From: an uncultured Gammaproteobacteria bacterium
Lineage (GTDB): Bacteria > Patescibacteriota > Microgenomatia > Levybacterales > GWA1-39-11
Direction: 5' to 3'
Assembly (NCBI GenBank): GCA_964531275.1
Contig: CAZHDZ010000006.1
Coordinates: forward strand, 14,963 to 78,962
DNA length: 64,000 nt
In this document: positions 1 to 19,768 of the stretch, piece after piece
Layout of the letters: each line of letters starts with the position of its first letter
How positions within the stretch are numbered: the stretch's first letter is position 1
Translations under genes and position numbers: made by a program
Notes under the pieces: generated by a model
Told to the model about the DNA's origin: nothing
What the model saw: only the letters and a program-made list of their open reading frames with translations
Database searches by the model: none

Positions 1-2
1 AA

Positions 3-120
3 CAGCTATCAAATGCTGTATCCACCTGCTTCCTAGAGGGCATAGCTGCTGAAGGATTAACAGAAAGAATAAAACCTTTCATAGGTCAAAAATCACTCGA
101 ATATTACTTGCATTACGATC
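3..120 (+). pseudogene. RHS/YD-repeat fragment (frame 3), ends ...KSLEYYLHYDH then TAA; upstream remnant of a disrupted RHS gene
   Basis: Own translation of frame 3 gives a YD-repeat-like EYYLHYDH motif followed by a stop at 118-120. No start codon; window begins inside it. Confidence 0.4.
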
Positions 121-129
121 ATTAACTAA

Positions 130-792
130 CACTCGCTACTCTCAGCTATAGAGCCTGCTCCATCAAGCTCTACAGAAACAACTGTCTACTACTATGCCAA
201 CAAGGAGCTTGTTGCAAAGAAGGATAACAACAATACAAAGACATATTTCCATAGTGATCATTTAGGATCAACAAGTGTTGTAACCAATCAAGCAGGATCT
301 GTTGTCGAGACTACTACGTACGACCCGTGGGGAGAAATCGTATCGGGAGGTACTGCAAACAAATTCCTCTATACAGGACAAGAGCATGATGGAGAAACAG
401 GACTACACTACTACAATGCCCGGTATTATAACCCTGACATTCGAAGATTCACTCAACCTGATGATATAATTCAGAATGTTTATGACCCTCAAATGCTCAA
501 CAGGTATTCATATGTAAGAAATAATCCACTAAGATACACTGATCCTTCTGGGCATTTTATCAATCCCCTCACAATACTCTCTGCCATTAACACAATTAAG
601 GATTTATTTGGCTCAACGAAATCTCATCCTACTCCTCAAAAAACCAATAGTAATATTGGTGCGCATAAGCCAACTTCAGCAGGCTCAGCCCCCTTAAACA
701 AGGTGCTTGGATCAAGCTCTTCAAGTGGTGGTGGAAATAATGTCACTCTAGACCACAAGCACCTCCAGGCGTCAATATCAGGCAGAATGTAA
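130..792 (+). pseudogene. RHS repeat-associated core domain C-terminal region (TYFHSDHLGS...YDPWGE...YTGQEHD...YYNARYYNP..RFTQPDD...RYTDPSGH) plus ~85 aa downstream; no in-frame start upstream (stop at 127-129)
   Basis: Own translation of frame 1 upstream of ORF 493..792. Canonical RHS core motifs YxHxDHLGS, YDxxGR, and the DPxG(L/H) autoproteolysis-site motif. Open frame begins right after a stop, so it is an orphan or disrupted tip. Confidence 0.65.
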
Positions 793-1190
793 GTGAAGCT
801 CAAAATCACAGAGTTAGCTTATCTATATTTAATCTCAATAGTCCAGCTACTCACGGTAAAAATATATACAACACGGCATGGTTTATCAACAAAGTTGCCT
901 ATGGAGGTGATTGGGACTATAAAAAGTATGATAATGATAGATATCAAGACTATGGCAATTGGCACTACGGAGTTGTTGGATCAGCTGCTGGTTATCCCGA
1001 ACCCATGCTGCTGGTAGGCGCAGGCGTAGCACAACAAATGCATAATATTAAACGCGTAAGCCAAGGTAGAAAACCAATAGAAACCTCCGCCTCTCAATTT
1101 TTTGATGCAGTTGATTCTAACGGTTTTTCTAATGATCAGTATTGGATTAGAAATGGTATCAATGATTTTCACTCAGGATCTTACCATTGA
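741..1190 (+). pseudogene. Polymorphic-toxin C-terminal domain in frame 3 (NIYNTAWFINKVAYGGDWDYKKYDNDRYQDYGNWHYGVVGSAAGYPEPMLLVGAGVAQQ...), overlapping the end of the frame-1 RHS ORF; frameshifted toxin tip
   Basis: Own frame-3 translation is open from 741 and extends the listed ORF 1005..1190. The GxWDYK / YGNW(F)NYG / LLxxAG motif pattern is one I recall from a family of Rhs/polymorphic-toxin C-terminal domains (Ntox44-like, from memory). Frames 1 and 3 overlap at 741-792. Confidence 0.5.
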
Positions 1191-1202
1191 AATTAAACTG
1201 GA

Positions 1203-1688
1203 TTGGCAGTAATAGTAAATTTAACTATAAAATTATATAATATACACTCAAAACTTGTGAAATATAAATTCAAGAAAATACTAATCTTAATTGGGGTAAT
1301 AATTATGGTTCCAATATTGGCCGTTGGACTAATTCTTTTATTACCTACAACGGGCTGGGAGTATTCAAATAAAAAATTTTCTGCTGATGGTAAATATTAT
1401 GCGCAAGTATCAGAAAGCAATGGGGGCGCTACAACTGCGTACTCTTCTGATGTTAATATTTTTAATGCAAAGTCTCAACTTAATAACTTAGGTATTATCA
1501 GCAGCTGGATAGGAACGAGCACTTCTGTCTTTGGACTTAACGGAAGACTATCTTCAATTAATACCTCTTGGATAGACAATCGCACCCTAAAAATTACATA
1601 TACAAGTTGCAGGCAAATATATGGTCGAGATTATTCATGGAAAGACGTAAAAATTGTCTACGAAGAAAAATGCTCTCCCAGTAATTAA
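1203..1688 (+). CDS. Small membrane-anchored protein (N-terminal TM, extracytoplasmic ~110 aa); candidate immunity or partner protein of the upstream toxin tip. Start ambiguous (ATG 1203, GTG 1258 or ATG 1305)
   Basis: ORF track. Hydrophobic segment ILILIGVIIMVPILAVGLILLL preceded by KYKFKK. Position immediately 3' of the toxin domain. Confidence 0.5.
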   Translation: MAVIVNLTIKLYNIHSKLVKYKFKKILILIGVIIMVPILAVGLILLLPTTGWEYSNKKFSADGKYYAQVSESNGGATTAYSSDVNIFNAKSQLNNLGIISSWIGTSTSVFGLNGRLSSINTSWIDNRTLKITYTSCRQIYGRDYSWKDVKIVYEEKCSPSN

Positions 1689-2268: not shown

Positions 2269-2339
2269 CAACAAATTAATCTATTCAGTAGTTTTAGATA
2301 ATAATTATTGCTTTCATTAAAATTAGAAATAGAGAAAGA

Positions 2340-2876
2340 TTAAAATTTCACTGGAATAGTGAGTTTTTTGTCATTATCCGGTTGACCTGATGGGTTTTCT
2401 TTGTGAATAAATAGTGTCCCATCGCCTTTTTCTGGCTTTGTGAATGTTAATTTTCCTTGAAAGTGCACGAATTCATCAGTCATCCACTCCCCTTCTGCTG
2501 TGAGCTTTACTGAACCAAGCTTTTTATTTTCGCGATCAACTAATTCTCCCGAAAGTTGCCCCTCAAAAAACCATGAGCCGCGGGCACGGCCTTGTACTTC
2601 GAGTGGGCTTGATACCTCCTGATTTGGTCGGGGATTTGTCACCATAATTTCGTCTATCATTTCCAATTCGTTGCCGATGTTCTGTGTAAATGACCTCCCA
2701 TCAGGAGTATTGCATCTGGGAGGGTAACTGTTCAAAGTCTCTGAGAAGGCTGTACACTCTTCAAAAGATTTTACATTACTTATCTTTACGCTCCTCTGAT
2801 ATTGGAGAAAGCCATAGACAGCTCCTGCCCCACAGAGAATGAGAAGAATCACTATTACAATCTTTCTTTTTCTCAT
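2340..2876 (-). CDS. Membrane-anchored protein with Gmad2-type immunoglobulin-like domain (GerMN-associated Ig-like fold)
   Basis: N-terminal TM/signal (IVIVILLILCGAGAV). The motifs VTNPRPNQEVSSPLEVQGRARGSWFFEGQ and GEWMTDEFVHFQGKLTF match the Gmad2 Ig-like domain pattern as I remember it. Confidence 0.6.
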   Translation of the reverse strand: MRKRKIVIVILLILCGAGAVYGFLQYQRSVKISNVKSFEECTAFSETLNSYPPRCNTPDGRSFTQNIGNELEMIDEIMVTNPRPNQEVSSPLEVQGRARGSWFFEGQLSGELVDRENKKLGSVKLTAEGEWMTDEFVHFQGKLTFTKPEKGDGTLFIHKENPSGQPDNDKKLTIPVKF

Positions 2877-2957
2877 ACCATTATTGTATCGCAGATTTAT
2901 ATTGCCATGCTAATAGCTTGCTTGACAACTTTGACTTTTTTTGGCTATCATAGATCT

Positions 2958-3698
2958 ATGCGTAAAAGTTTTCTTATAGCTGCTTCTTTTCTTGTGCTTA
3001 GCGCGACACCTACATTTGCAATCTACCGTACAGATGGTCCTCAAGCAACCCCAGCCGAAGGAGAAGCAATGCTTATGACAACGACAACTGAAGTCGGCAC
3101 TGCACCGAAAGAACCCCGAGCAATTCCTATGGAAAAAACTTCAGCTCTTCCTGGTGAACCAACGTCTAGGATTATGATGGAAAAAGATGACATAAAAGAC
3201 AAAATGATGGAGGCAAGAAATGCTTTTAAGGCAAAGCTGCAAGGAATTAAGGATACAAAAAAGCAAAAAACGGTTGAAAATATTGATTCAAGAATAAATG
3301 AAATCAATAAAAAAAGGACAGAGATGATGGGTGAAAAGCTTACTCGAATGACCTCAATTCTTGAAAAAATCACCTCAAAGGCTGCTGCGTTAAAAGCAGA
3401 AGGTAAAAGCACTGCGTCACTTGAAGCAGACATTGCTACAGCAACTACCATAGTTGAAGCAGCAAAAACAGCAGTTGCTACTCAAGCAGCAAAAGATTAT
3501 GTTGTAGATGTTACAACAGAAACTGCTCTTAAAACTGATGCACAAAAGGCCGTTAAAGCATTTGTAACTGACATAAAAGCAACCATGACGCAAGTGACAG
3601 CAGCACAAAAAGCTGTTGCAAAAGCTGCTCGCGGAGCAGGATTATTGATGGAAAAGCCATCAGTCACTCCAACCATAACATCAGCTGCAACTCAATAG
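2958..3698 (+). CDS. Secreted Ala/Lys/Thr-rich coiled-coil protein (signal peptide MRKSFLIAASFLVLSATPTFA)
   Basis: ORF track 2802..3698. The upstream part overlaps the minus-strand gene, so the start is placed at Met53 (2958), which gives a classic signal peptide. Confidence 0.5.
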   Translation: MRKSFLIAASFLVLSATPTFAIYRTDGPQATPAEGEAMLMTTTTEVGTAPKEPRAIPMEKTSALPGEPTSRIMMEKDDIKDKMMEARNAFKAKLQGIKDTKKQKTVENIDSRINEINKKRTEMMGEKLTRMTSILEKITSKAAALKAEGKSTASLEADIATATTIVEAAKTAVATQAAKDYVVDVTTETALKTDAQKAVKAFVTDIKATMTQVTAAQKAVAKAARGAGLLMEKPSVTPTITSAATQ

Positions 3699-3704
3699 AG
3701 CCCT

Positions 3705-4199
3705 ATGGATAATAAAGACCCACAACCAACACAACCAACTACAGAAGCATCCCCAGCAGCACCTTCTGTTCCAGTTACTCCGGTTACTCCCGAGCCAACT
3801 GCTCCTGTCGAAACACCTCCAGCTCCAGCTGCTCCGGCCATAACAACTACTCCTTCAACAGATCCATCCACAACTCCACCTGCAGGCACTCCTCCGCCAG
3901 TAGTCCCTCCACCTGCTGCAAGCGCACCAGTTGTTGCAAAAGATGGTAAAAAGAAAAATGGCCTTATGATCGTTGCAGCTATCCTTATTGTTCTTATCGT
4001 CATCCTGGGCATCTTGTATTACTTCATAATGCAGCAGTCAGCAACCAAAACACCTACTCCAGTCGTCACACCAACACCTACACCAGTATCCGTTGTTACT
4101 CCAACACCTACTGCAACCGACGAATCAATTCTTGAAGAAGAACTTCCTGATACTACAGATGATGAGGCGACACTAGAAGCCGAAATCAACAACCTCTAG
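3705..4199 (+). CDS. Pro/Thr-rich single-pass membrane protein (PT-rich linkers either side of one TM helix, acidic C-tail)
   Basis: ORF track. Low-complexity PT repeats. TM segment LMIVAAILIVLIVILGILYYFIM. Confidence 0.5.
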   Translation: MDNKDPQPTQPTTEASPAAPSVPVTPVTPEPTAPVETPPAPAAPAITTTPSTDPSTTPPAGTPPPVVPPPAASAPVVAKDGKKKNGLMIVAAILIVLIVILGILYYFIMQQSATKTPTPVVTPTPTPVSVVTPTPTATDESILEEELPDTTDDEATLEAEINNL

Positions 4200-4201
4200 A
4201 C

Positions 4202-4534
4202 TTAGGTCAATTTATTCAGAAGAGAAGATATCAATGAGACAACAATGCTAAAGAGTATTGCTGTAAATAAGGACGCTACATGAAATCCCGGAACAACGGA
4301 GCTTACGAGAAGAACCAACGCCCCATTTAGAATGAGTATAAATATTCCAAGTGTCAAAATGGTGAGTGGCAGAGTAAGGATAACGAGTATTGGCTTTATA
4401 AAAGCATTAACAACCGCAAAAACTACCGATACAATAATAAGAGTCGTAAATGTGTCTACCTCAACTCCCTGGATAATATTTGATGCAATAAAAATTGCGA
4501 GAGCCAGAACGATGAGTCGTAAGAGGATGGCCAT
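4202..4534 (-). CDS. DUF360 / phage-holin-4_2 superfamily 4-TM membrane protein
   Basis: Four hydrophobic helices. The motifs PILVILTLPLTILTLGIF and VPGFHV are typical of the DUF360 family (from memory). Confidence 0.6.
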   Translation of the reverse strand: MAILLRLIVLALAIFIASNIIQGVEVDTFTTLIIVSVVFAVVNAFIKPILVILTLPLTILTLGIFILILNGALVLLVSSVVPGFHVASLFTAILFSIVVSLISSLLNKLT

Positions 4535-4564
4535 ATGCTTATTATAGAACGCTTTTTAATAACT

Positions 4565-5563
4565 TCAAACACTAACTACATTAAGAGGTGCTCCAGAAGT
4601 AAATGCTGATAGATTTTCATGAGTAGTCTCGACGATCTTTTTCAAAGCCTCGCGGCTATTAAATGCGTTATGAGGAGTTATTATAACTTTTGGATGATTA
4701 AGAAGCATGTGATCTTGAAGCACAGTAAGTAATTTTTCTTTATCAAAGTCCTGAGAAAGCAGATCCTTCTCTTCTTCAAGCAACGGCTCTTCTTCCAATA
4801 CATCCAGACCAGCCGCACTAACCTTGCCACTTTCTAATGCTTTAAGAAGTGCTGCAGTATTTATTAAAGCACCTCTTGCAGTATTTAAAAGAACTACCCC
4901 ATCCTTCATTTGAGAAAATGCTTCGTCTGAAAGGTAGTGGTGAGTCTCTTTTGTGTATGGAATATGGAGAGTAACGATATCTGATTGCTGATAGAGAATT
5001 GGCAATTCAACAAATTTACACCCCAACTCTTTCTCGAGAGCATAGTCTGGGGTTCTCTTATACACGATAACATTCATGCCAAAACCTCTCGCAATTTTTA
5101 TAACATTTGTCCCAATACTTCCAACCCCAATAACCCCAATAGTTTTTCCTCTCAATTCAAATCCCGTCAAACCACTAGGCATAAAGCTCCCCTCCTCCAC
5201 TCGATCAATTGACTCTGGAAGTCTACGTGCAATTGCTAAAAGAAGAGCGAATGTATGCTCTGCGACAGTTGTCTCGCCATACGAAGGGACATTGCTAACC
5301 ACAATACCTCTTTTCTTACACTCTTCTATGTCTATGTGGTCAAATCCCGTTGACATAGTAGTTATAAATTTCACATTTGGCATTTTGTCCAAGAGCTCTT
5401 TATTCATTTGCGTATGAATAAAAGTAATGACAACTTCAAAGGTGCTAATATCTGGGGTTTGATCTGAAAGTGGTTGATCGAAGAAAACTAGCTCGTTATC
5501 TGATATTTCCTTTTGGAAATATTCTTTTTCCCAATTTTCCAACTCAAAAAATGCGTATTTCAT
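4565..5563 (-). CDS. D-isomer-specific 2-hydroxyacid dehydrogenase (D-lactate dehydrogenase-like), NAD-binding
   Basis: Rossmann motif GKTIGVIGVGSIGTNVIKIARGFGMNVIVY and the conserved catalytic-region layout of D-2-hydroxyacid dehydrogenases; about 330 aa. Confidence 0.85.
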   Translation of the reverse strand: MKYAFFELENWEKEYFQKEISDNELVFFDQPLSDQTPDISTFEVVITFIHTQMNKELLDKMPNVKFITTMSTGFDHIDIEECKKRGIVVSNVPSYGETTVAEHTFALLLAIARRLPESIDRVEEGSFMPSGLTGFELRGKTIGVIGVGSIGTNVIKIARGFGMNVIVYKRTPDYALEKELGCKFVELPILYQQSDIVTLHIPYTKETHHYLSDEAFSQMKDGVVLLNTARGALINTAALLKALESGKVSAAGLDVLEEEPLLEEEKDLLSQDFDKEKLLTVLQDHMLLNHPKVIITPHNAFNSREALKKIVETTHENLSAFTSGAPLNVVSV

Positions 5564-5622
5564 GGCAGTAATTAAGTATACCCAATTATTTATTAAAAAA
5601 GTAGAGCATAGAATCTTTCAGG

Positions 5623-7995
5623 CTAATTTGCCTGAGGCTTTATTGTTAGATTGTCGTTTTCTATTGTAATATGTCCTTTTTCACCAGAAATTAGATCGTG
5701 CGACAAAATCAATTTTGAGAGCTGATTTTCAACTGACTGTTCTATAAAACGACTTATGTTACGGGCTCCAAATTCTACGCTGTATGCATTTTTTGCAATA
5801 TAATCACACACTGCTGAATCAAAAGTTAGCAGTATTTGTTTTTCCTTCGTTTTTTCTACAATTTCTTCAAGGAATATCTTTGCAACTTGAGAAGCCTCCT
5901 CTTGGGTTAATGGATGAAAGACTATTACATCGTCAAAGCGATTTAAAAGCTCCGGCTTAAAAGTTCCACTTTGTAGAAGTTTTTCTAATAATTTGTCTTT
6001 CATATTTTCGAGTGCACCACTCTTAAACATTTCCCTAATGAATTCGCTTCCAGCATTTGATGTCGCGATAATAATAGTGTTATTGAAAGATACTGTCCTT
6101 CCAAGATTGTCTGTCAAACGCCCTTCATCTAGAATTTGAAGAAATAGATTAAGAATTGATGGATCTGCTTTTTCAAATTCATCGAGAAGTATTTCACTGA
6201 ATGGATTTGCTACTACTTTATCGGCAAGAGTATCCTGATTTCCGGAAGAACCCAAAAATCTTTCAACAGAATTTGAATTCTGGTACTCACTCATGTCTAA
6301 CCTGATCATATTGTTCTCTTCTCCAAAATAGGATGTCGCAAGAGCTTTTGCTGCCTCAGTCTTTCCAACACCTGTTGGTCCCAAGAATAAAAATGAAGCA
6401 ATCGGCTTATTCTCATCTTTAATTCCGGACCTAACTCTTCTCATAGCATCAGCTATCGCCTGTACTGCTTCATTTTGAGCAATAACTCTTTTGTGAATTG
6501 TTTGTTCTAGATTAAGAAGCTCTTTTGCTTCTGCATCAGTAGGCTCTGACAGAACAATTTGAGTTTTTGTCTGAATAAAGTCTCTCACGCTTTGGCTGTC
6601 TATGTGCTTAATGCCATGCGTTAGGCAATATGAAACAGTATCCTCAATAAGTCTTACTGCACGTCCGGGAAGACCAGTGCCATCATTTACATAAGAGTTT
6701 GATAATTTGCGTGCCTCTGAGATAGCAGAGTACATAATAGTAACGTTGTTAACGCTTTCAATTTCTTTGGATTTCTCAAGCAGCATGAAAAGCACTGTCT
6801 CCTCATCTGGCTCATCAATTTCTATCTCATCAAAAAGCTCCTTTATTTCGGTTTTTGGATAAATGAATGTTTTGTATGCCTCCTTGGTAGTACTTCCTAT
6901 AATTTTTATTTTGTTGCTCTTCAGATATTCTACTAACGATCCCGAAAAATCGATATTGAGCCCTCCGCCCCCAAACATATTCTCGATATTTGGAATATAG
7001 ACAATGATATTGCCGGCATGAAAAAGCTCTGAGAAAAGATTCACTATTCTCGCTTCTAAATCTCCTTGATTGTCTATCCCAGCAAGTAGCCTTTCAGGAT
7101 ACAACTTAAAAACCAGCTTATTTGAGACACTTTTTGGCAAGCTACCACTATTAGAATCCACAACCAACTCCTTAACCAAAGCAGTCTTTCCAACACCAGC
7201 ATCCCCAACAAGCATTGCGTTGCTTGATGAACTTTTTGAGAGTGCAGTCACTAGTAGATCGTATTCCCGGGATCTTCCAATTGTTAGAGTTTGGGTTGAG
7301 GACAGAACTTCTCTAGTAAAATCTTGTGCATATTGTGCAAGTTCCGCACTCCAACCATAGACGAAAAAATCAAAGACGCCTGCTCCGGTAAAATGGAGCC
7401 CATGGTGCTTAGGCATGTCGATCGAATATTGTCTCCTAACCCACGATAGGACAATAACGATATCTTTTTCGAATATTTCACTTTGAAATAGCGATTTATC
7501 TATCTCATCTTCCAATAAAAGATATGCAGCATATATATCAATTCCATGTATATTATTTCCTCCAACTGATTTGACGAGTTGGCCTGCCTTAAGAAGGACC
7601 TGCTCTTCATCAATGGTCATTTCGTTTCTTTTGTATGAATGTCCCAAAAGCCTATTAAAATATTTAATCTCGCTCGTATGTAAAAGGTTTCCCATAACAT
7701 CCTCAACTTTTGCAAAACGTTCTAGATGCGCCCTTGTTTTATAGTCAACAGCTTCAATGATATGTTTTACAGCATCATGAATTGTCCTTTGAGGGGGAGA
7801 ATTTTCCAGCTTAAAATGAATAAAAAATTCTTGAAGTATGAGGAAAAAATAGATAGGTAGTAATCGCATTATAAAAGCGACATCTGAAAGGTTGAAATAT
7901 ACAAGAATACCAATCCCGAAGAAAATCAGAACCCTCAACCAACGAATAATTGGGTTGTCAAAAAAATAATACAAATAATAATAGTTATTGTGCAT
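5623..7995 (-). CDS. Hsp100/Clp-family double-AAA+ ATPase with N-terminal transmembrane helices; D1 has Walker A (GDAGVGKTA) but lacks the Walker-B DE; D2 is intact (GPTGVGKTE, ILLDEFEKA, ATSNAG, GARN); no ClpP-binding IGF loop
   Basis: ORF track translation. Two hydrophobic helices in the first 60 aa. A ClpB/ClpC-like D2 with a C-terminal small domain. In D1 the sequence IVYIPNIENMF replaces the expected hhhhDE box. Confidence 0.75.
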   Translation of the reverse strand: MHNNYYYLYYFFDNPIIRWLRVLIFFGIGILVYFNLSDVAFIMRLLPIYFFLILQEFFIHFKLENSPPQRTIHDAVKHIIEAVDYKTRAHLERFAKVEDVMGNLLHTSEIKYFNRLLGHSYKRNEMTIDEEQVLLKAGQLVKSVGGNNIHGIDIYAAYLLLEDEIDKSLFQSEIFEKDIVIVLSWVRRQYSIDMPKHHGLHFTGAGVFDFFVYGWSAELAQYAQDFTREVLSSTQTLTIGRSREYDLLVTALSKSSSSNAMLVGDAGVGKTALVKELVVDSNSGSLPKSVSNKLVFKLYPERLLAGIDNQGDLEARIVNLFSELFHAGNIIVYIPNIENMFGGGGLNIDFSGSLVEYLKSNKIKIIGSTTKEAYKTFIYPKTEIKELFDEIEIDEPDEETVLFMLLEKSKEIESVNNVTIMYSAISEARKLSNSYVNDGTGLPGRAVRLIEDTVSYCLTHGIKHIDSQSVRDFIQTKTQIVLSEPTDAEAKELLNLEQTIHKRVIAQNEAVQAIADAMRRVRSGIKDENKPIASFLFLGPTGVGKTEAAKALATSYFGEENNMIRLDMSEYQNSNSVERFLGSSGNQDTLADKVVANPFSEILLDEFEKADPSILNLFLQILDEGRLTDNLGRTVSFNNTIIIATSNAGSEFIREMFKSGALENMKDKLLEKLLQSGTFKPELLNRFDDVIVFHPLTQEEASQVAKIFLEEIVEKTKEKQILLTFDSAVCDYIAKNAYSVEFGARNISRFIEQSVENQLSKLILSHDLISGEKGHITIENDNLTIKPQAN

Positions 7996-8341
7996 ACCAT
8001 TGGGGAGATGCTGCTCCCAAAAGAATGAAAATTAAAGCAATTGGTATTGATGCAATAAGAAATCCTATGAGACATTCTGCGCAAAGGATAATAAGAACAA
8101 TGCATGATGTAACAGCAATCAAAATAGATTTTATTACCATTCCAAATAGTATTGAGAAAAGGACAAGCCCATCCCTATACTCATTCTTCATAGGTTTGAA
8201 AAAAGTTCTTATCAGTAAGGGGAGAGAGAGAAGGGATACTACATACCTGTTAAATAGCACGAAGAAATTTATCAACCCACCAAGAACGTCTTTGTACCAG
8301 AAGATAATGAGATACAGTGGGTAGTATAAAAATGCAACCAT
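7985..8341 (-). CDS. Small 4-TM membrane protein, overlapping (11 nt) and co-directional with the Clp-like ATPase
   Basis: ORF track. Four hydrophobic segments. Stop overlaps the start of the downstream Clp-like gene. Confidence 0.45.
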   Translation of the reverse strand: MVAFLYYPLYLIIFWYKDVLGGLINFFVLFNRYVVSLLSLPLLIRTFFKPMKNEYRDGLVLFSILFGMVIKSILIAVTSCIVLIILCAECLIGFLIASIPIALIFILLGAASPQWYAQ

Positions 8342-8414
8342 AGCAAGACTAAGAAGCTCAACGCTCCCTATTCCTAGTTTAGGTTAACCGTGCTTGTGGG
8401 GCAATAAGTAAATA

Positions 8415-8741
8415 TTGTATGATAACCTCATGACGGATACTGATCTTTTGTCTTATCGTGATCTTTTTATTGAGTCTGCAGAGGAGCATGTACAAAAAAT
8501 TAATTCTGAGCTTACGAACAGCTCTGCACGCAAAGAAGTTATTGATGAAATATATAGGAGGATTCATTCATTGAAAGGCTCCTCAAGCATAATGGGCTTT
8601 TCCGAAATCTCCCAACTATGCACTAAAGCAGGAGACCTACTACAAGATCGCGAGAAAGAAAGTACTAGAGATGATAACCTTAAAATAGTTCAAGAAATTG
8701 TTAATAACATCCAACAAAAAATAGAAGAAATTAAAAAATAA
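8415..8741 (+). CDS. Standalone histidine phosphotransfer (HPt) domain protein
   Basis: The sequence RIHSLKGSSSIMGF fits the HPt signature HxxKGxxxxxG, in a ~100-aa all-helical context. Confidence 0.65.
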   Translation: MYDNLMTDTDLLSYRDLFIESAEEHVQKINSELTNSSARKEVIDEIYRRIHSLKGSSSIMGFSEISQLCTKAGDLLQDREKESTRDDNLKIVQEIVNNIQQKIEEIKK

Positions 8742-8746
8742 GAACT

Positions 8747-9112
8747 ATGAAAATACTGCTCGCGGAGGATGATCCATTCTTTCAAAATTTTTATTCCCGA
8801 AAATTATTAGAACATGGCTTTGAGGTAGATGTGGCGCATGATGGAAATGAAGCAATTGACAAGATATTCAAGCATACACCTGATGTTGTTCTACTTGACC
8901 TTATTATGCCGGGAAGAAATGGCTTTGAAGTACTCTCTGAAGTTTCAAAAAATAACACAATAAAAAAGCCTCCAATAATAGTATTTTCCACTCTAGGCCA
9001 AACTTCAGATATTGAAAAGGCAAAGCAATTAGGTGCAGTTACCTATATTAATAAAACCTTTTTCGATTTTGACAATTTATTATCTAAAGTAACAGCTGTT
9101 ATGAAAAACTAA
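8747..9112 (+). CDS. Single-domain CheY-like response regulator receiver
   Basis: MKILLAEDD...DVVLLDLIMPGRNGFEVL...TYINKTF: conserved Asp pocket, phospho-acceptor Asp, and Thr/Lys positions. Confidence 0.85.
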   Translation: MKILLAEDDPFFQNFYSRKLLEHGFEVDVAHDGNEAIDKIFKHTPDVVLLDLIMPGRNGFEVLSEVSKNNTIKKPPIIVFSTLGQTSDIEKAKQLGAVTYINKTFFDFDNLLSKVTAVMKN

Positions 9113-9119
9113 ATAGAAT

Positions 9120-10808
9120 ATGATCCTGTCCGACGATCAAATCAAAGCATTAGTTCTAAAAACTGGTCTTGCTAATGACCAGACTCTTCAGGAGCTCGTT
9201 GAATTCGCGAAAAATTCAAATGTTACACTTGCCGATGCCTTAATAGAAAAAGATGTAATCTCTGATGAAAATCTTGGAATACTCATCGCTGACTTCCTCC
9301 ATATCCCATTTATAGTTCTTTCAAAACTCTCGATACCAGAAGATGTATTTAGAATTGTTCCTGAAAAAATTGCAAGAAAACATAAAGTTATTCCATTTGA
9401 AAAAACACAAGAAGGGTTAAAAGTAGCAATAGTTGACCCTAAAAAAGTTGAGGTTCTTCAGGCGATCAGCAAAAAAGCTGGAGTCAAAGTCATACCTTAT
9501 CTCACAACGGAGCGTGATGTTGAAAATATTCTCCGCATATACAAAAGAGATCTTCAAAAATCATTCGAGCAACTCCTACAAAAGGAGCTTGGTATAACTG
9601 ATATTTCAAAAGTTACTGATGCTGCTCCAATTGAAAAAATTGTTAACCTACTTGTTGAATTCGGATATCAAGATAAAGTATCCGATATTCATATAGAACC
9701 TGAAGAAAAGGATTCACTTGTACGTTTTAGAATCGATGGAATACTCCATGACGTACTTTACTTCCCTAAGAACTTTCATGAAAGAATTATCTCAAGAATA
9801 AAAATCTTGTCGAAATTAAGAACCGACGAGCATTTAAGTCCTCAGGATGGAAAAATGAGAATAAAACTTGATGAAGAAAATCTCGACATCAGAGTCTCAA
9901 TACTACCAATTGCAGACGGCGAAAAAGCAGTGCTTCGTTTGCTTGCTTCACATTTCAGACAGTTTTCCCTCATTGACCTTGGAATGAGTGAATCCGATCT
10001 GAAAAAAGTAACAGCAGCGTACAGCAAGTCGTATGGAATGGTCCTCTCAACTGGTCCGACAGGAAGCGGAAAGACAACCTCTATATACGCGATTCTAAAA
10101 ATTCTTAACACAAGAGAAAAAAATATTACAACGATTGAAGACCCTGTTGAATACAGAATAAAAGGAGTTAATCAAATCAATGTTAATGTCAAAACCGATC
10201 TTACCTTTGCAAATGGTCTTCGCTCTATTCTGCGTCAGGATCCAAATGTTGTTTTTGTTGGAGAAATCAGAGATGGTGAAACGGCTGGTATTGCTGTAAA
10301 TGCTGCTTTGACCGGACATTTAGTTCTGTCTACCCTCCACACGAATGATGCCGCAACCGCTCTTCCTCGTCTCATTGATATGAAAGTTGAGCCTTTTCTT
10401 GTTGCTTCCACAGTCAATGTCATTATCGCTCAAAGACTTATTAGAAAAATCTGCGATATGTGCAAAATGTCCTATACTATATTAAGAACGGACCTTGCTA
10501 AGAATCTCCCACCAAGCGTAATATCAAAGCATTTTGGTGAAAAAGAGAACATAAGCCTTTATCGTGGAAAGGGCTGCAAGATCTGTCATGCAACGGGATA
10601 TTCAGGAAGACTAGGACTTTTTGAAGTACTCGTGGTATCGAAAGAAGTTAAAGCTCTTATTACGGCAAAGTCGGACTCTGACGTAATTGCAAAAAAAGCT
10701 ATCGAAGAAGGAATGACTACTATGTTAAATGACGGAATAAATAAAGTTGCAAAAGGAACAACAACATTGGAAGAAGTGTTGAGAGTTACAAGGGTCGAAT
10801 CCGATTAA
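9120..10808 (+). CDS. pilB: Type IV pilus assembly ATPase PilB (GspE family) with N-terminal T2SSE_N domain
   Basis: Walker A GPTGSGKTTS, Asp box, His box, and tetracysteine-like motif CDMC...CKIC. N-terminal domain LADALIEKDVISDENL. Confidence 0.92.
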   Translation: MILSDDQIKALVLKTGLANDQTLQELVEFAKNSNVTLADALIEKDVISDENLGILIADFLHIPFIVLSKLSIPEDVFRIVPEKIARKHKVIPFEKTQEGLKVAIVDPKKVEVLQAISKKAGVKVIPYLTTERDVENILRIYKRDLQKSFEQLLQKELGITDISKVTDAAPIEKIVNLLVEFGYQDKVSDIHIEPEEKDSLVRFRIDGILHDVLYFPKNFHERIISRIKILSKLRTDEHLSPQDGKMRIKLDEENLDIRVSILPIADGEKAVLRLLASHFRQFSLIDLGMSESDLKKVTAAYSKSYGMVLSTGPTGSGKTTSIYAILKILNTREKNITTIEDPVEYRIKGVNQINVNVKTDLTFANGLRSILRQDPNVVFVGEIRDGETAGIAVNAALTGHLVLSTLHTNDAATALPRLIDMKVEPFLVASTVNVIIAQRLIRKICDMCKMSYTILRTDLAKNLPPSVISKHFGEKENISLYRGKGCKICHATGYSGRLGLFEVLVVSKEVKALITAKSDSDVIAKKAIEEGMTTMLNDGINKVAKGTTTLEEVLRVTRVESD

Positions 10809-10809
10809 T

Positions 10810-11880
10810 ATGCAATTATTTAATAACTCCAACCCTAAATCGTTACGTATTAGCAGTACTGAAAAATTAGCATTGATCAGCAATCTTGCAACAATGCTAA
10901 CTGCAGGAATTCCTATTCTTGAAGTTGTGGATTCTCTTTTAGAGGATGCGAAAGGCAATCAAAGAAAACTTCTTGAATCACTGAAATTAGATCTTACCCA
11001 AGGAAATCATGTAGCAGATGCATTCGCAAAATTTCCTCGGGTTTTTGACAAGATTACCGTAAATCTCCTTAAGGCATCTGAAGAAGCAGGAACCCTAGAC
11101 GTAACGCTTATCGACTTGAAAGCTTCAATAAGAAAAGATTCTGAATTTTCAGACAAAATCAAAGGAGCACTTACGTATCCCGTACTTATTATGTTTGTTT
11201 TTATTGGAGTGCTACTTATGATCCTGGTTGTTGTTGTTCCAAAAATCTCAACGGTGTTTATGAGACTTAATGTAGAGCTACCACTACCTACCCAGATTCT
11301 TATCGCAATGTCTCAAGCGCTTACTCAATATACAATATTTGTAATTTTAGGAGCTGTAATATTTGTTGCTGGAATTTTTCTTCTATACAGAGAAAAGAAA
11401 AGAGAATTTCTTCACATACTCTTTATGCTACCCATCATATCCACCCTCGCAAAACAAATTGATCTGACTCGCTTTTCAAGAAGTCTTTACTTATTACTTA
11501 ATGCGGGTATTCCAATTGCAGCCGCATTAGAATTAACACAAGACGTTGTACTAAAACGTGAAGTTGCAGAATCAATTACGCATTGTAAAGAGGTTGTTCT
11601 TGCTGGTAGCCAGCTTTCGGAGGGACTTAAAAAAGCAAAGGGGATATTTCCAAGCATTATGATAAGAATTACTGAAGCAGGAGAGAAAAGCGGATCCCTA
11701 GATAAATCGATGCAAGATGTCTCTGAATATTTGGACTACCAAGTAGAAAAAACTCTCAAAACTCTTACAACTGTTCTAGAACCTATTATGCTTATTTTTG
11801 TTGGAATTGCGGTCGGAGGAATGATGCTTGCTATTATTGCTCCTATATATGGGCTTATTGGGCAAGTCACTACACGGTAA
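10810..11880 (+). CDS. pilC: Type IV pilus platform protein PilC (GspF family, two T2SSF repeats)
   Basis: Three TM segments with duplicated cytoplasmic domains. Position directly after pilB. Confidence 0.85.
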   Translation: MQLFNNSNPKSLRISSTEKLALISNLATMLTAGIPILEVVDSLLEDAKGNQRKLLESLKLDLTQGNHVADAFAKFPRVFDKITVNLLKASEEAGTLDVTLIDLKASIRKDSEFSDKIKGALTYPVLIMFVFIGVLLMILVVVVPKISTVFMRLNVELPLPTQILIAMSQALTQYTIFVILGAVIFVAGIFLLYREKKREFLHILFMLPIISTLAKQIDLTRFSRSLYLLLNAGIPIAAALELTQDVVLKREVAESITHCKEVVLAGSQLSEGLKKAKGIFPSIMIRITEAGEKSGSLDKSMQDVSEYLDYQVEKTLKTLTTVLEPIMLIFVGIAVGGMMLAIIAPIYGLIGQVTTR

Positions 11881-12365
11881 TGAAACTACAACGACAAGCT
11901 GGATTCACCTTAATTGAAATTTTATTAGTAGTTGGGATTCTGGGACTACTTTTCGGAATCGGGCTTTTAAGCATTGGCAACATCCAAGTAATCACTCAAA
12001 ATAATGCCTCTTCAACCCTGATAGTCTCAGATCTTAAGACACAGCAGATAAAGGCGATGGTTGGTGACACAGAGGGAAGAGGAATTCCGGATAACTATGG
12101 CATTAAAATTTTGACAGACAGATATATTTTATTCCACGGCATAAATTACAACGCAGCTGATACTGCTAACTTTTCAATTCCACTCGCATCCGGATATACA
12201 CTGAGCTCTACATTTCCCAATACAACAATTCTCTTTGCATCAAATAGTGGAGAGCTAGTAAACTTTGCTCAGGGCAGTGACACAATTACGGTAACCCATA
12301 CGTCATCAAGCAAGCAACAGGTTATTAGACTTAATAAATATGGAACTATTACAAATCTTCAATAA
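11880..12365 (+). CDS. Prepilin-type (pseudopilin/minor pilin) protein with class III signal peptide
   Basis: N-terminus MKLQRQAGFTLIEILLVVGILG: G-F-T-L-I-E with Glu at position +5 after the Gly cleavage site. Confidence 0.8.
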   Translation: MKLQRQAGFTLIEILLVVGILGLLFGIGLLSIGNIQVITQNNASSTLIVSDLKTQQIKAMVGDTEGRGIPDNYGIKILTDRYILFHGINYNAADTANFSIPLASGYTLSSTFPNTTILFASNSGELVNFAQGSDTITVTHTSSSKQQVIRLNKYGTITNLQ

Positions 12366-15276
12366 AAACCAAAAAGGCCAGATGCTCATAGAAATTCTTA
12401 TTGTCATTGCAATAAGTGCGATTATGCTCCCAGCACTACTCACTGGCCTTTTCTCATCAACTCAAGGAAAAGCACAACAGGGACAACGAGTACAAGCAAT
12501 CGCTCTTATGAAAGAGGCTGAAGAAGTAGTCAGAAACGTTAGAAACCAGAGCTGGCAAGCCTTTGCCACCAATGGCATTTATCATCCATTGATATCGGGC
12601 ACTACGTGGAATTTTGCATCAGGGAGTGAGACGGTAAATGGCTTGACTAGAACAATTACTGTTAGTGACGTTAGGAGAGATGCGAATGGAGCAGTTGTTA
12701 CTTCAGGCGGCAGCCTTGATCCTTCTACTAAGCGTGTCTATATTCAAGTGACCTGGGGTGAACCCTACGCTTCTTCTGTAGATTCTACTATTTACGTTAC
12801 AAGATTCCTACAAAATGCAGCCTCAACCCAAACAAGCATTAGTGACTTTAGCACCGGCACTTTTGCAACAACCGAATCATCGAATGTGTTGGGTGGAGAA
12901 ATTACGCTTTCAACCAATACGAAGGGTAAATGGTGCTCTCCCGCTTTTGCTGCAGCTACCATTACGCTCCCTGATGGTCCACCAGTTGCCGTTGCCGCGA
13001 CCTCAAGCGCAACCAGCATAACAATACCAAATCAAGCATTTGTAGCAACAGCCCCAACCCTTGCAACTTCAATTAAATTGGCGCATGTTACGGTGTCTGC
13101 TGATACCGATACTCAGACGACTTCTCTTCGAGGGAAATTCACTCTTGACCCAACCAAATACAGCAATGCCGGACTGGTGCCCTCAGGCATTGGACTAGAC
13201 AATAGTTTTAAAACAAATGCCATAAAATATTACAAATCGTCTTCGGGAAAAATGTATGCCCTTATAGCAACTACAAAACCTGACAGGGAGGTTATAGCAA
13301 TTTTAGTTGATGACAACAATAGCTCGAATGATAATACAAATACCGGCGAGTACCAAGATTATGTAAATGGAATTTATAAATATTGGACGTACTTTAATAC
13401 CAATACATACAACACTGCAGGAAATTTTGATACAGGATTTCAAAGTCCATCAGCAAATTCCGCAGACAGTGGAGGGGATGGGGATGGATTTACCAATGGT
13501 AGCAGGGCTTACTCAAATAATACCCAACAAGCAACAGATAGTAATAGCGGATCGGGGACAGGAACAAGCTGCACTGGGAGCGACAAGGACAAGCATCGAT
13601 TCTACAACTATGATTTTACTCTCCCAACAGGTGCTGCTATTTCCGGGATCGAAGTAAGACTTGATGCATGGGTTGAAAGCACATCCAATTCACCCACTAT
13701 GTGTGTTCAACTTTCCTGGGATGGGGGTACAACATGGACAACAGCAAAATCAACAACAACATTAACAACATCTCAATCAACATATCTGCTTGGAGGCTCG
13801 TCCGACACTTGGGGTCGGTCATGGGGAAGCACTGAGTTGAGCAATTCAAATTTTAGAGTTAGAGTGATTAATGTATCAAGCAGCACCTCAAGGGATTTTT
13901 CCCTTGATTGGGTGGCTGTAAAAGTTAATTATTCAGGTGGAACCCTAAATGACCAAGCCCCATTCGATTATGGAGCTACCTCTATTGCAGTTCTTGGAAA
14001 TCAAGGCTATGCAAGCTCTGGTGGATACCTTTACACCTTTGATTTATCAAACATCGACTCAAAATCCACCTCAGATGGTCTAGATATGGTAGGCTGCAGA
14101 ATACAGCTTGATGGGTACGACTGTAATCCCGGCTCCGGCACAGATAGAAAGTACGACCCTGGTGAATATGGGGCAAGCTGGTCTGATACAACTTCACCTG
14201 CCCACAATGACTGCTCTGATGGAGGAAATATAGAGCTGTATGGAACAAATGATATTTACCCAGTCCAGGTAGGCAGCAATACATATATTTATGCAGCGGT
14301 TGGTGCTGGTACAAATCCTGAGCTTAATATTGTAAATGCTACAAGCATACCAACCACAAGCACTACTCCCACAATTTCAGATAGTACGTGTGGGAGAGCC
14401 TCCGGAGGCAATACCGGATGGAAATTGGTCGGAAGCTATGACTTTAATACAGCCAATGGCACAGAAGAAGCTGCAAATTCTGTATATGCCAGCGCTGATG
14501 GAACGAGGGCTTATATATCATCCAATGGTGGCTCGGCCAGCAAGCAGCTTTATGTAATAAATACCTCCAGCAAAACCGCTCCCGCCTTCCTTTCAGGCAG
14601 TCCTTCAACTGGACCTCTAAGCGGATTCTACAGTGGAACTGGAGCAGATGCCGAACTGTATCCAAGACGTTCACTAACTGTTTTTAACGGTCAGAGAGCT
14701 GTGTTGGTTGGAAAAGATGGAACGGTAAATGGAAATAATGGGAAAGAATACCAAGTACTTAACATGAGCAATGAAGCCAACCCTACATACTGTGGGGGTT
14801 TGCAGTTCGATTCAGGATTTAATGACCTTACTGCTGTTTCGGAGTTAGACGGAGACAACTTTGTATACATGGTCGGAAATACAGTAGGAAATGAGTTGAA
14901 AATAATTCAAGGAGGTCCTGATGGCACCTACCTAAGCTCCGGAACGTATGAATCCTCTCCAAAGGATCTAGGTGCAAATGTAGCACTTAATAGATTTTCT
15001 GTAACTGCTACTGTCTCTGCTTCAACCATTCTTCAATTTCAAGTTGCTGCCACTCAACAAGTAAGTGGTTCTTGTGTTGGCGCAACATATACGTACGTTG
15101 GGCCAGATGGCACTTCAAGCACCTACTTCCCTTCAAGCGGAGGACCAATACCTTTGAGTGGAGTTGTTGGATTTGAAAATCCTGCACAATGCGTAAAGTA
15201 TAAAGCTTTTCTTTCAACAACAGACAACAATGTAACCCCTTCAATTCTTGACGCATCTTTTAATTTCTCACCGTAA
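12340..15276 (+). CDS. Giant prepilin-type protein (978 aa): class III signal peptide (KGQMLIEILIVIAISA) fused to a large Ser/Thr/Gly/Asn-rich extracellular region; candidate pilus tip adhesin
   Basis: ORF track. N-terminal prepilin motif with E at +5. Remainder is beta-rich with low-complexity ST-rich stretches and no further TM segment. Confidence 0.7.
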   Translation: MELLQIFNKNQKGQMLIEILIVIAISAIMLPALLTGLFSSTQGKAQQGQRVQAIALMKEAEEVVRNVRNQSWQAFATNGIYHPLISGTTWNFASGSETVNGLTRTITVSDVRRDANGAVVTSGGSLDPSTKRVYIQVTWGEPYASSVDSTIYVTRFLQNAASTQTSISDFSTGTFATTESSNVLGGEITLSTNTKGKWCSPAFAAATITLPDGPPVAVAATSSATSITIPNQAFVATAPTLATSIKLAHVTVSADTDTQTTSLRGKFTLDPTKYSNAGLVPSGIGLDNSFKTNAIKYYKSSSGKMYALIATTKPDREVIAILVDDNNSSNDNTNTGEYQDYVNGIYKYWTYFNTNTYNTAGNFDTGFQSPSANSADSGGDGDGFTNGSRAYSNNTQQATDSNSGSGTGTSCTGSDKDKHRFYNYDFTLPTGAAISGIEVRLDAWVESTSNSPTMCVQLSWDGGTTWTTAKSTTTLTTSQSTYLLGGSSDTWGRSWGSTELSNSNFRVRVINVSSSTSRDFSLDWVAVKVNYSGGTLNDQAPFDYGATSIAVLGNQGYASSGGYLYTFDLSNIDSKSTSDGLDMVGCRIQLDGYDCNPGSGTDRKYDPGEYGASWSDTTSPAHNDCSDGGNIELYGTNDIYPVQVGSNTYIYAAVGAGTNPELNIVNATSIPTTSTTPTISDSTCGRASGGNTGWKLVGSYDFNTANGTEEAANSVYASADGTRAYISSNGGSASKQLYVINTSSKTAPAFLSGSPSTGPLSGFYSGTGADAELYPRRSLTVFNGQRAVLVGKDGTVNGNNGKEYQVLNMSNEANPTYCGGLQFDSGFNDLTAVSELDGDNFVYMVGNTVGNELKIIQGGPDGTYLSSGTYESSPKDLGANVALNRFSVTATVSASTILQFQVAATQQVSGSCVGATYTYVGPDGTSSTYFPSSGGPIPLSGVVGFENPAQCVKYKAFLSTTDNNVTPSILDASFNFSP

Positions 15277-15279
15277 AAT

Positions 15280-15786
15280 ATGAACCATAAATCAATAAAG
15301 ATGCACAAACAAAGAGGATTCACATTGGTTGAGCTACTTATCTACATGGGGCTACTAGTAATTATGATTGTTGTCTTCACGCAAATTTTTGTTTCGATTT
15401 TGGACAATCAGTTGAGATCTACTAATACTTCGAATGTTGCTGATGATGGAAGATATATTTATTCTAGATTCATTTATGATGTTAATAGGGCTGACTCAAT
15501 TGCTTCACCCTCAGCATATGGCAGCAGTTCTGCAAGCATGACTTTGGTAATTGACGGGATAGACAATACTTATTCTGCAACAAATGGAAGCCTCCTAGTA
15601 ACAACCCCGACAAATACTTTTATATTGAATGGATATGGATCAACAGTTACAGATCTAATATTCACTAAGGTCGGTTCCCCAAGCGCAAAAAGTACAGTAC
15701 GCATGAACTTTACAATCAGTGGAACAATTAATTCGCGTGGCTTAATAGATAGACAAGATTTTCAAACAACTGCCGGACTGAGATGA
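15280..15786 (+). CDS. Prepilin-type minor pilin/pseudopilin
   Basis: Near the N-terminus: KQRGFTLVELLIYMGLLVIMIVVF, a prepilin cleavage/methylation motif. Confidence 0.8.
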   Translation: MNHKSIKMHKQRGFTLVELLIYMGLLVIMIVVFTQIFVSILDNQLRSTNTSNVADDGRYIYSRFIYDVNRADSIASPSAYGSSSASMTLVIDGIDNTYSATNGSLLVTTPTNTFILNGYGSTVTDLIFTKVGSPSAKSTVRMNFTISGTINSRGLIDRQDFQTTAGLR

Positions 15787-16166
15787 TACATAACTTTCGC
15801 AATCAAAAAGGGCAAACGCTCGTTATTATGCTTACCTACATGGTAATAGCTGTTGTTGTTACAACTGCATCAATTGCTTTGGTTTTAAATAGCGCGAGCG
15901 GTACAGATAAAGTCTATCAGGGAACCAACTCCCTTGATATTGCAGAAAGTGGAGCAGAAACTGCTATGATAAAGTTACTAAGAAATCCGAATTATACGGG
16001 CGAGACATTGACAGTTGGAGGAGGCCAAGCAGTAATAACCATAACGGGCACCAATCCAAAAAAAGTTATTTCGAAAGGGACTCTCAACCATTTTACTCGT
16101 ACAATACAGGTGCTAGTAGATACAAGTAACAATACTCTCACTGCTATATCCTGGAAGGAAATCTAG
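15783..16166 (+). CDS. PilX-like minor pilin (hydrophobic N-terminus without Glu5, AESGAETAMIKLL motif)
   Basis: QKGQTLVIMLTYMVIAVVV followed by IAESGAETA, which resembles the PilX N-terminal region. Confidence 0.55.
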   Translation: MIHNFRNQKGQTLVIMLTYMVIAVVVTTASIALVLNSASGTDKVYQGTNSLDIAESGAETAMIKLLRNPNYTGETLTVGGGQAVITITGTNPKKVISKGTLNHFTRTIQVLVDTSNNTLTAISWKEI

Positions 16167-16175
16167 ACTGCTCAT

Positions 16176-16874
16176 ATGGAATTTACAAAAAAACAACCTG
16201 CTTTTATTTATCTTGATAAAAATGGCTTCTACTTTTTTGAGAATGGCATGACCCAAGTAATAAGTCTCGCTTTCCTTGCAACTTCTGTAAAAGATATGGA
16301 CGTTATCAATGGTGGCTCGCTTATGACCCAGGTAAAAGGTTTTATAGATCAATATAAACTGTCCCCTGCGGCAGCCACCATAATCTTCTCTCCAAATATT
16401 ACCTTTGAAAAAGATATCGTTGATCTTGCCCATGATCAGCAGGAAGAAGAGATTAAAAAATTCTTAGAGACAGTTCCTTTCGACAGCGTGCTTTCAAAAG
16501 AGTATCCGATTAATAAAGGGGTTAAGATAATCGCGGTCAATGAGGATATATACATGGAACTTAAAATGGCATTTGAGAAAAACGCATGGAGCGTTGATAA
16601 CGCTGTAGCTTATCAAATGATGGGTCAAGATCAGACATTTATTCGCAATCTAACTCCAGACAACGCAGCACAACTCGTAAAGCGTCTTTATCACCTAAAA
16701 CAAGCAACACTTCTAACTGTTGAGAAAGAAAAATTCCAACCAATTGAAATGTCTTCTGACAATAAAAAGGAAATGACAAAAACAAAAAAAGTAAATGTTC
16801 GTCTCTTTGCCATGATTGGAATTTTCGGAATTCTTTTCGTTGTTCTGGGTTTTATGATAATTAACATGAAATGA
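16176..16874 (+). CDS. Hypothetical pilus-locus protein, ~205-aa cytoplasmic domain with a C-terminal TM anchor; possibly a reduced PilM-like component
   Basis: ORF track. C-terminal helix LFAMIGIFGILFVVLGFMIINMK. Sits between the minor pilins and the major pilin. Confidence 0.4.
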   Translation: MEFTKKQPAFIYLDKNGFYFFENGMTQVISLAFLATSVKDMDVINGGSLMTQVKGFIDQYKLSPAAATIIFSPNITFEKDIVDLAHDQQEEEIKKFLETVPFDSVLSKEYPINKGVKIIAVNEDIYMELKMAFEKNAWSVDNAVAYQMMGQDQTFIRNLTPDNAAQLVKRLYHLKQATLLTVEKEKFQPIEMSSDNKKEMTKTKKVNVRLFAMIGIFGILFVVLGFMIINMK

Positions 16875-17058
16875 GATTCTTAAATCTTTTTCTGATTTAT
16901 ATTTTTTTCTACAATCAGAAATAAAATCCTCACAAATTGCTATTGAAATCATGAAAAGAAAAATTAATATGAGATATTTTTTGGTTAATTTGAAGCAAAA
17001 GTTGCTCTTAAATTACCTATTGACAAGGTTTTTCAAATATGATTATCTTAATACAGAT

Positions 17059-17532
17059 ATGACAACTGCCCAGTTTAAAAATCAAAAAGGTTTCACACTC
17101 ATCGAGTTACTCGTAGTGATCGGAATCCTAGCCGTTCTTCTTGCTATCACTCTTATTGCTATCAATCCAGCGAGACAATTCCAACAGGCAAATGACACAA
17201 AAAGATCTTCTGACGTAAATGCTATTCTTAGTGCAGTCGGACAATATTCAGCAGACAACAAGGGAAATCTAACAGCTCTTGGAATCCCAACAGGAACAGC
17301 AGCGATTATCGGAGATGGAGTTGGACAAGTTGATCTTTGCGATGACATAGTCACACAATACATGGCTGCCCTACCTGTAGATCCATTAACGAATAACGGA
17401 GCCCCAGTAACTGATTGTACAGCTGCATACGATACGAATTACACAATTGTTCAAAGCGCTGCAAACAGCAGAATAACTGTAAGTGCTCCAGCAACTGAAA
17501 TCGGAGCTGTAGACATCTCAGTAACTCGATAG
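17059..17532 (+). CDS. pilA: Type IV major pilin (PilA-like) prepilin; start ambiguous (17059 gives leader MTTAQFKNQKG; in-frame ATGs at 16951 and 16969)
   Basis: KGFTLIELLVVIGILAVLLAITLIAINPARQFQQAND is a canonical type IVa pilin N-terminus. Mature length is about 145 aa. Confidence 0.8.
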   Translation: MTTAQFKNQKGFTLIELLVVIGILAVLLAITLIAINPARQFQQANDTKRSSDVNAILSAVGQYSADNKGNLTALGIPTGTAAIIGDGVGQVDLCDDIVTQYMAALPVDPLTNNGAPVTDCTAAYDTNYTIVQSAANSRITVSAPATEIGAVDISVTR

Positions 17533-17619
17533 TTCTTCACTCATTGACTTCCCTATAAATTAAGTGTTAGCATTTTATTAGTAGTTTAATTCGCTTAGCT
17601 AAGAATCTTACAATTCTAT

Positions 17620-18012
17620 ATGGATAAGAAGATACTCATTGCGGAAGATGATGAATTCCTAAGACAACTATATTCTGATGTCTTAAAAGGCGAAGGCTAT
17701 ACTGTCGATGTTGCCATAGATGGAGACGATGCCCTTCGCAAAATACAGGCAGGTGGATGGGATCTAGTGCTACTTGATATCATAATGCCCAAGCTCAGTG
17801 GTCTTGATGTTATGAGGAAGGCAAAGGAATCTCCTCAACCTTTAAATCAAAATAAATGCATAGTATTTCTCACCAACTTAGATAAGGGGGAAGAGATTAA
17901 GGAAGCATTAATTTTGGGAAATGGTTATCTCATAAAAAGTCAGATTACTCCAGGTGATTTGGTTAAAGAAGTTCAATTATATCTTACGCCTCAAGGACAA
18001 ACCGTTAATTAA
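17620..18012 (+). CDS. Single-domain CheY-like response regulator receiver
   Basis: MDKKILIAEDDEFLRQLY...DLVLLDIIMPKLSGLDVM... Confidence 0.85.
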   Translation: MDKKILIAEDDEFLRQLYSDVLKGEGYTVDVAIDGDDALRKIQAGGWDLVLLDIIMPKLSGLDVMRKAKESPQPLNQNKCIVFLTNLDKGEEIKEALILGNGYLIKSQITPGDLVKEVQLYLTPQGQTVN

Positions 18013-19418: not shown

Positions 19419-19484
19419 ATGTTACTAATTAGTATACTGCAAGAATTATTTTTTTACTGTATCACAGAAAGAATCTTTGATTCT

Positions 19485-19763: not shown

Positions 19764-19768
19764 ATATA

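Follow-up and report, generated by a model that had tools for sequence, protein, structure and literature searches.

An orphan Rhs is described in Koskiniemi 2014 (PMC3967940), and in Salmonella Typhimurium LT2 orphan rhs-CT/rhsI modules lie downstream from the main rhs gene (Koskiniemi 2014, PMC3967940; Poole 2011, PMC3150448). The core homology tract offers a route for recombining orphan Rhs toxins into the main gene (Koskiniemi 2014, PMC3967940). Rhs toxin/antitoxin pairs that are expressed internally have been described by Starsta 2020 (PMC7043789). Among the toxin tips, Ntox44 has been described in Zhang 2012 (PMC3482391) as an all-alpha domain with DxK, GNxxxG and DxxxD motifs, for which no immunity family is listed, and papers after Zhang 2012 have termed it a nuclease or RNase domain.

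The window, by which is meant the whole 64-kb stretch of DNA analysed here, opens with a locus that is closest to these systems. Positions 145-1190 are very probably an orphan rhs C-terminal cassette that is truncated at its 5' end, frameshifted and decaying. Like the LT2 orphans, the fragment consists of a partial core and a toxin tip lacking initiation and export signals, is linked to a putative immunity gene and shares a core homology that could support recombination. Unlike the LT2 orphans, the window copy is frameshifted downstream of the homology tract, the main rhs gene is known only from a relative with 77% identity (L005), and the low-GC host bacterium is uncultured; a T6SS context is not visible. 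The features of the locus are as follows.

1 to 125, + strand: 3' end of a DUF7674 gene, last 40 codons and TAA (gene 506-865 on contig L012); not RHS
145 to 555, + strand: 5'-truncated RHS core remnant in frame 1 (TIGR03696 match 319-555, cleavage-type motif DPSGH at 541-555)
556 to 746, + strand: low-complexity linker of variable length in alignments, rich in Ser, Gly, Asn and Pro, from RHS core to toxin domain
735 to 747, + strand: frameshift site from frame 1 to frame 3, where the window is longer than L004 by 2 nt and than L005 by 11 nt
747 to 1190, + strand: toxin domain of the Ntox44 type, read in frame 3 as far as the stop codon 1188-1190 (Pfam match about 879-1160)
1257 to 1688, + strand: ORF-A, 143 aa from a GTG start, DUF5412-like, probable cognate immunity protein (100% identical to P0121)
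1831 to 2268, + strand: ORF-B, about 145 aa, immunity-like, with no adjacent toxin; its homologue in L005 lies upstream of the Ntox44 cassette

Architecture of the cassette and its upstream neighbour

Three-frame translation of window 1-1200 has shown an open frame 1 between 130 and 789, closed by a TAA stop at 790-792 and free of internal stops over 220 codons. In agreement with an earlier note on this DNA, which had recognised the end of an RHS core here, all the motifs that it quoted are present (TYFHSDHLGS, YDPWGE, YTGQEHD, YYNARYYNP and RFTQPDD, followed by DPSGH at 541-555). The TIGR03696 Rhs_assc_core model matches nt 319-555 with 87.6 bits (cut-off 32.5, E=6e-25) over profile positions 1-76 of 76, with the PxxxxDPxG motif at the end, and the Pfam RHS and teneurin YD-shell models give weak matches to this frame. 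The sequence 3' of DPSGH in frame 1 is about 78 aa long, not ~85 aa as the note had it.

A full-length RHS protein was defined by a start codon, a region for delivery or export at its N-terminus and a YD-repeat shell (PF05593 or NF041261). NF041261 RHS_core gives 28 bits in the window against a cut-off of 2000, the window contains no YD repeats, neither ATG, GTG nor TTG occurs in frame 1 from 130 to 492, and the other 62.8 kb of the window hold no further RHS-like sequence. The homology to L003, L004 and L005 sets in abruptly at 145-160; 5' of that point the sequences are unrelated. Consistently, a family N-terminal HMM representing the N-terminal 144 positions of 44 full-length homologues matches frame 1 only at profile positions 92-144 (48.7 bits), and the full-length relatives carry ~100 extra N-terminal residues that make up a signal peptide and YD repeats. 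Judged from these alignments, the 5' end of the cassette is a truncation. The cassette keeps the last ~135 residues of the RHS shell or core, ending in DPSGH, together with the linker and the Ntox44 domain, and has neither a start codon nor an export signal nor the shell of YD repeats.

The open stretch of frame 3 covers 741-1187, with its stop at 1188-1190. Its 149 codons contain no internal stop, a condition reached by none of 2000 shuffles of 741-1190, and it has no ATG, GTG or TTG from 741 to 1004. The earlier note had placed here a domain of ~150 aa with GDWDYK and YGNWHYGVVGSAAGYPEPMLLVGAGVAQQ, both of which are found within 741-1187, connected it with a family of toxin tips, and proposed a search of the 741-1190 translation against toxin profiles. 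Such a search returns Pfam Ntox44 (PF15607) with 47.9 bits, above the gathering score of 24 (E=1.9e-12), and so gives that family its name. As in the Ntox44 domains of Zhang 2012 (PMC3482391), the domain is RHS-fused and carries an intact DxK motif (DYK at nt 915) and GNxxxG motif (GNWHYG at 954), and an AlphaFold2 model is all-alpha, with five helices and a pLDDT of 80. The third motif, DxxxD, is represented only by DRYQD, which lies between the other two, in a column that is not invariant in the clade. All family-invariant residues are kept. PDB fold and sequence searches with the model yielded only generic helical-bundle noise.

The sequence upstream of the window is seen on L012, a Logan contig of 1669 bp from run SRR12762304, which reaches 740 nt further upstream. 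On this contig the frame-3 piece at 3-122 forms the last 40 residues of a 119-aa ORF that is complete and has its own ATG. The 119-aa protein matches DUF7674 with 43.4 bits (cut-off 27) over profile positions 4-106 of 111, and the window fragment alone matches it with E=0.028; a homologue search with the 40-aa piece found nothing, and GTDB genome contigs contain no exact match to window 1-55. A DUF695 gene precedes the DUF7674 gene (E=9.6e-19), and the latter probably belongs to the immunity-type genes of the array. The cassette is embedded in this array of small immunity-type genes, with DUF695 and DUF7674 upstream and ORF-A and ORF-B downstream.

A promoter and terminator scan of 1-2400 gave 14 sites against 9.2±2.7 expected, which is not above background, and the 64-kb window contains no tRNA genes or Rfam families. 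Elsewhere in the window, four large ORFs of 583-978 aa (12340-15276, 30456-32756, 33143-35242 and 59837-61588) have no Pfam match at E<=1e-5.

Synteny with a relative and selection on the cassette

The MAG contig CAZEEU010000006.1 (L005) is collinear with the window, its positions 11530-20442 corresponding to window 2339-11183 with about 77% nucleotide identity. The order of genes in L005 is the main rhs gene, an immunity-sized gene, an orphan core-CT fragment with its partner, a stretch lacking ORFs, ORF-B, the core-Ntox44 cassette and ORF-A, and includes the following features.

148-5457 of L005: full-length main rhs gene, >1769 aa, running into the edge of the stretch examined
6085-7004 of L005: first orphan core-CT fragment, with a partner gene
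1.3 kb of L005, between the partner gene of the first orphan and the ORF-B homologue: decayed stretch without ORFs
9422-10447 of L005: core-Ntox44 cassette in a single frame, equally headless and cut at the same point as that of the window

The main rhs gene of L005 is only about 4 kb upstream of its core-Ntox44 cassette, and window 149-545 is 82.4% identical to the core of this main gene at 4442-4838, with no gaps. The window cassette, which has no initiation or export signals, is in this respect an orphan whose core is homologous to a main rhs gene. Headless core-Ntox44 ORFs with small immunity-like genes upstream, Barstar and DUF695 among them, are also found in L024, L025 and the P0010 locus.

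Several further observations concern the make-up of these loci. In the main rhs gene of L005, an insert of ~210 aa (4100-4450) separates the core from the last YD repeats, and the orphan cassettes start exactly where this insert ends; P0002 has a fragment of it as its N-terminus, and positions 1-270 of L004 are also concerned. The order of the array differs, with ORF-B following ORF-A in the window and preceding the cassette in L005 (8880-9311), where neither ATG, GTG nor TTG is found at the start expected for the ORF-B homologue. Upstream, the window genome carries DUF695 and DUF7674 genes (L012 26-865), and L005 has an unrelated DUF695 gene downstream (10910-11494).

The best named RHS homologues come from Candidatus Roizmanbacteria and Daviesbacteria, with some archaeal MAGs in addition. 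L005 is labelled as an uncultured Gammaproteobacteria, the named closest RHS homologues are from Candidatus Roizmanbacteria and Daviesbacteria, and the GC content of the window is 38%; the label of L005 may be wrong. A large family of mini-RHS proteins of ~410-450 aa (P0013-P0070) consists of a Sec signal peptide, YD repeats over only ~100 aa, the core and a toxin tip that varies, and occurs in MAGs of Roizmanbacteria and Daviesbacteria and in some archaeal MAGs (Woesearchaeota, Altiarchaeota, Methanoculleus). Going by solved RHS structures, these proteins are presumably too short to form a closed RHS shell.

Between the window and L005, the core remnant has a dN/dS of 0.05, Ntox44 one of 0.22, ORF-A 0.13 and ORF-B 0.19; among the neighbouring genes, the values are 0.10 for a Gmad2 protein and 0.15 for a holin-like protein. 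The two cassettes are separated by a dS of about 1. By these ratios, the cassette was under purifying selection for most of its divergence from L005. The orphan core has a dS of about 1.6 to the main rhs gene of L005 and was not recently homogenised with it. A purely silent archive does not fully explain such strong purifying selection on a headless cassette. Internal expression of the kind reported in Starsta 2020 (PMC7043789) could explain it, and the intact copy in L005 has internal GTG and ATG start codons. Unlike the internally expressed pairs (PMC7043789), the window copy would yield from ATG 493 only a 99-aa product (493-792), which runs into the stop caused by the frameshift and contains no toxin domain; the same 99-aa ORF is found exactly on L012.

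The linker frameshift and alternative explanations

The frame switch was bracketed to nt 708-750 by tblastn and located at about 735-747 by DNA alignment. Frames 1 and 3 overlap at 741-792, directly 3' of a GTGGTGGTGG run, and the run that the earlier note had seen beside the overlap is indeed present, at 725-734. The surplus bases fall in the Ser/Gly/Asn-rich linker of variable length. A search of a 5.8-billion-protein collection with the conceptual core-Ntox44 fusion found 724 homologues, the closest of which, P0001 (77% identical) and P0002 (64%), have the core and Ntox44 in one ORF. No relative was found in which the same frameshift is conserved. Purifying selection over most of the divergence, together with the retention of the invariant residues, indicates that the frameshift is recent.

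How many disruptions the sequence holds depends on the piece at 3-120, which the earlier note had read, from EYYLHYDH, as a YD repeat and as the first of three pieces of one RHS module. The likeness of EYYLHYDH to a YD repeat is superficial: the family N-terminal HMM gives -0.2 bits for this piece, the same as for reverse-strand frames, and the YD-repeat reading was rejected since the piece is the C-terminus of the complete DUF7674 ORF with its own ATG. The union of frame 1 with frame 3 at 741-1190 stands, and that of either with 3-120 falls, so that a single rhs gene with two frame disruptions has virtually no probability left. The second frame break that the note had seen at 118-130 is, by comparison with L012, the end of the complete DUF7674 gene, followed by an intergenic gap and the 5' truncation, and no frameshift. 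Because the upstream piece belongs to a separate gene, the sequence as aligned has one frame disruption, not two. The remaining disruption might be thought to come from sequencing or assembly, which would leave an intact but headless orphan as in L005; the lesion does sit in a variable low-complexity linker beside a (GGT)3 run, and both flanking segments are stop-free with every family-invariant residue kept. L012, however, which comes from an independent assembler, is 100% identical to window 1-929, frameshift included; since it is probably derived from the same reads as the window, this agreement excludes an assembler error and not a systematic read error. The frameshift site has no homopolymer longer than 3, the remaining long ORFs of the window are intact, those for DnaK, ClpB, MetRS and the pilus ATPase included, which indicates a good sequence quality, and no intact-frame variant more than 77% identical exists among the 5.8 billion proteins. 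Taken together, an artefact is quite improbable. More improbable still, to the point of being negligible, is a live toxin gene in which programmed -1 ribosomal frameshifting or transcriptional slippage joins the two frames: the shift needed is indeed -1 and both frames are open and conserved, but no slippery site of the form X XXY YYZ occurs between the frame-3 stop at 738-740 and the frame-1 stop at 790-792, and the homologues are single ORFs. Programmed frameshifting was rejected on these two grounds, and a start codon and an export signal are lacking upstream anyway.

A different question is whether the orphan still has a main rhs gene to serve. If none were left, the cassette would be a stranded relic that decays for want of a recombination partner, while the immunity genes are kept for defence. 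The 740 nt upstream of the window on L012 hold only the small immunity-type genes DUF695 and DUF7674, no other RHS-like sequence is present in the remaining 62.8 kb, and the frameshift together with the gene order rearranged relative to L005 points to erosion. On the other hand, the main rhs gene of the syntenic L005 stands about 4 kb upstream of the same cassette, and about 24 kb of the 88,450-bp contig of the NCBI protein P0121, presumably the origin of the window DNA, fall beyond the window, so that we regard such a relic as unlikely. A main rhs gene would be expected upstream in the window genome, by analogy with L005.

A decaying orphan cassette at 145-1190, the first of the two alternatives offered by the earlier note, agrees with the headless structure, the synteny with L005, the partner gene and the presence of the frameshift in a second assembly. 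The 2 surplus nt at ~735-747 of the linker were acquired in the window genome. A frameshift at this place means that the toxin cannot be made by internal initiation, nor would it be rescued by recombination through the core homology of ~400 bp (149-545), because the homology lies upstream of the lesion; a re-use of the cassette by recombination is an inference. The intact ORF-A may still protect the cell against Ntox44 toxins from relatives.

The partners of Ntox44

ORF-A, for which a 161-aa version from a TTG start also exists, belongs to a family with a basic N-terminus followed by a hydrophobic anchor of ~22 residues (Kyte-Doolittle hydropathy 3.19). It contains the motif NGGATTA, of which NGGA(T/V)T is invariant in the family, and two Cys residues (C118 and C139) that are invariant in four close homologues and absent from the distant L013 protein. 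The DUF5412 model gives 16.6 bits for ORF-A (P0121), below the gathering score of 25, and matches 5/5 members of the family, all below threshold (best E=1.7e-6), which makes ORF-A a relative of DUF5412 but no certified member. For ORF-B, neither Pfam nor NCBIfam gave a match.

Homologues of ORF-A adjoin Ntox44 in about 7 loci, down to an identity to ORF-A of 26%. A homologue is found directly 3' of RHS-Ntox44 in L005/L003, L022, L023, L024, L013 and the P0010 locus, the partner gene of the last having a weak DUF5412 match; in L013 the Ntox44 domain is 42% identical to that of the window and the partner protein 26% identical to ORF-A. An additional copy of ORF-A is present in the immunity array of L025. 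It is this conserved adjacency, by itself, that makes ORF-A likely to be the cognate immunity protein of Ntox44. Zhang 2012 (PMC3482391) has no immunity family for Ntox44, whereas a DUF5412-like, membrane-anchored partner recurs here.

The gene downstream of Ntox44 repeatedly encodes an exported or membrane protein, recognised by a membrane anchor, a lipoprotein signal or a signal peptide, the window (1257-1688) and L013 (1570-2058) being among the cases. At more distantly related loci, lipoprotein-type signals are found 3' of Ntox44 in L014 (6445-6978), L015, L020 (872-1426) and L019 (1067-1432), the downstream protein of L018 (2013-2456) has a single transmembrane anchor, and those of L008, L009 (10414-10998) and L016 have several transmembrane segments. 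The recurrence of such partners suggests that the Ntox44 clade is probably neutralised outside the cytoplasm, and the clade may act there as well. Exported partner proteins do not fit the label of nuclease or RNase.

The finding itself is of a textbook type, in that rhs loci serve as archives of displaced toxin tips and the immunity genes that go with them, and its main value lies in a correct annotation of the locus as a pseudogene or orphan accompanied by three or four immunity-type genes. One by-product is that Ntox44 gains a candidate immunity family, and the exported topology of this family speaks against the "nuclease" label commonly given to the toxin. An orphan cassette with dN/dS of 0.05-0.22 over a deep divergence bears on the question of whether such cassettes are silent archives or are in use. 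There is the possibility, which we put forward tentatively and hold to be somewhat doubtful, that Ntox44 hits the envelope or membrane, that the DUF5412-like anchor protein neutralises it there, and that headless RHS-core/Ntox44 cassettes of these uncultured bacteria are kept by purifying selection as functional units rather than as inert archives. If this is true, Ntox44 would for the first time have an immunity family assigned to it, that of the DUF5412-like protein.
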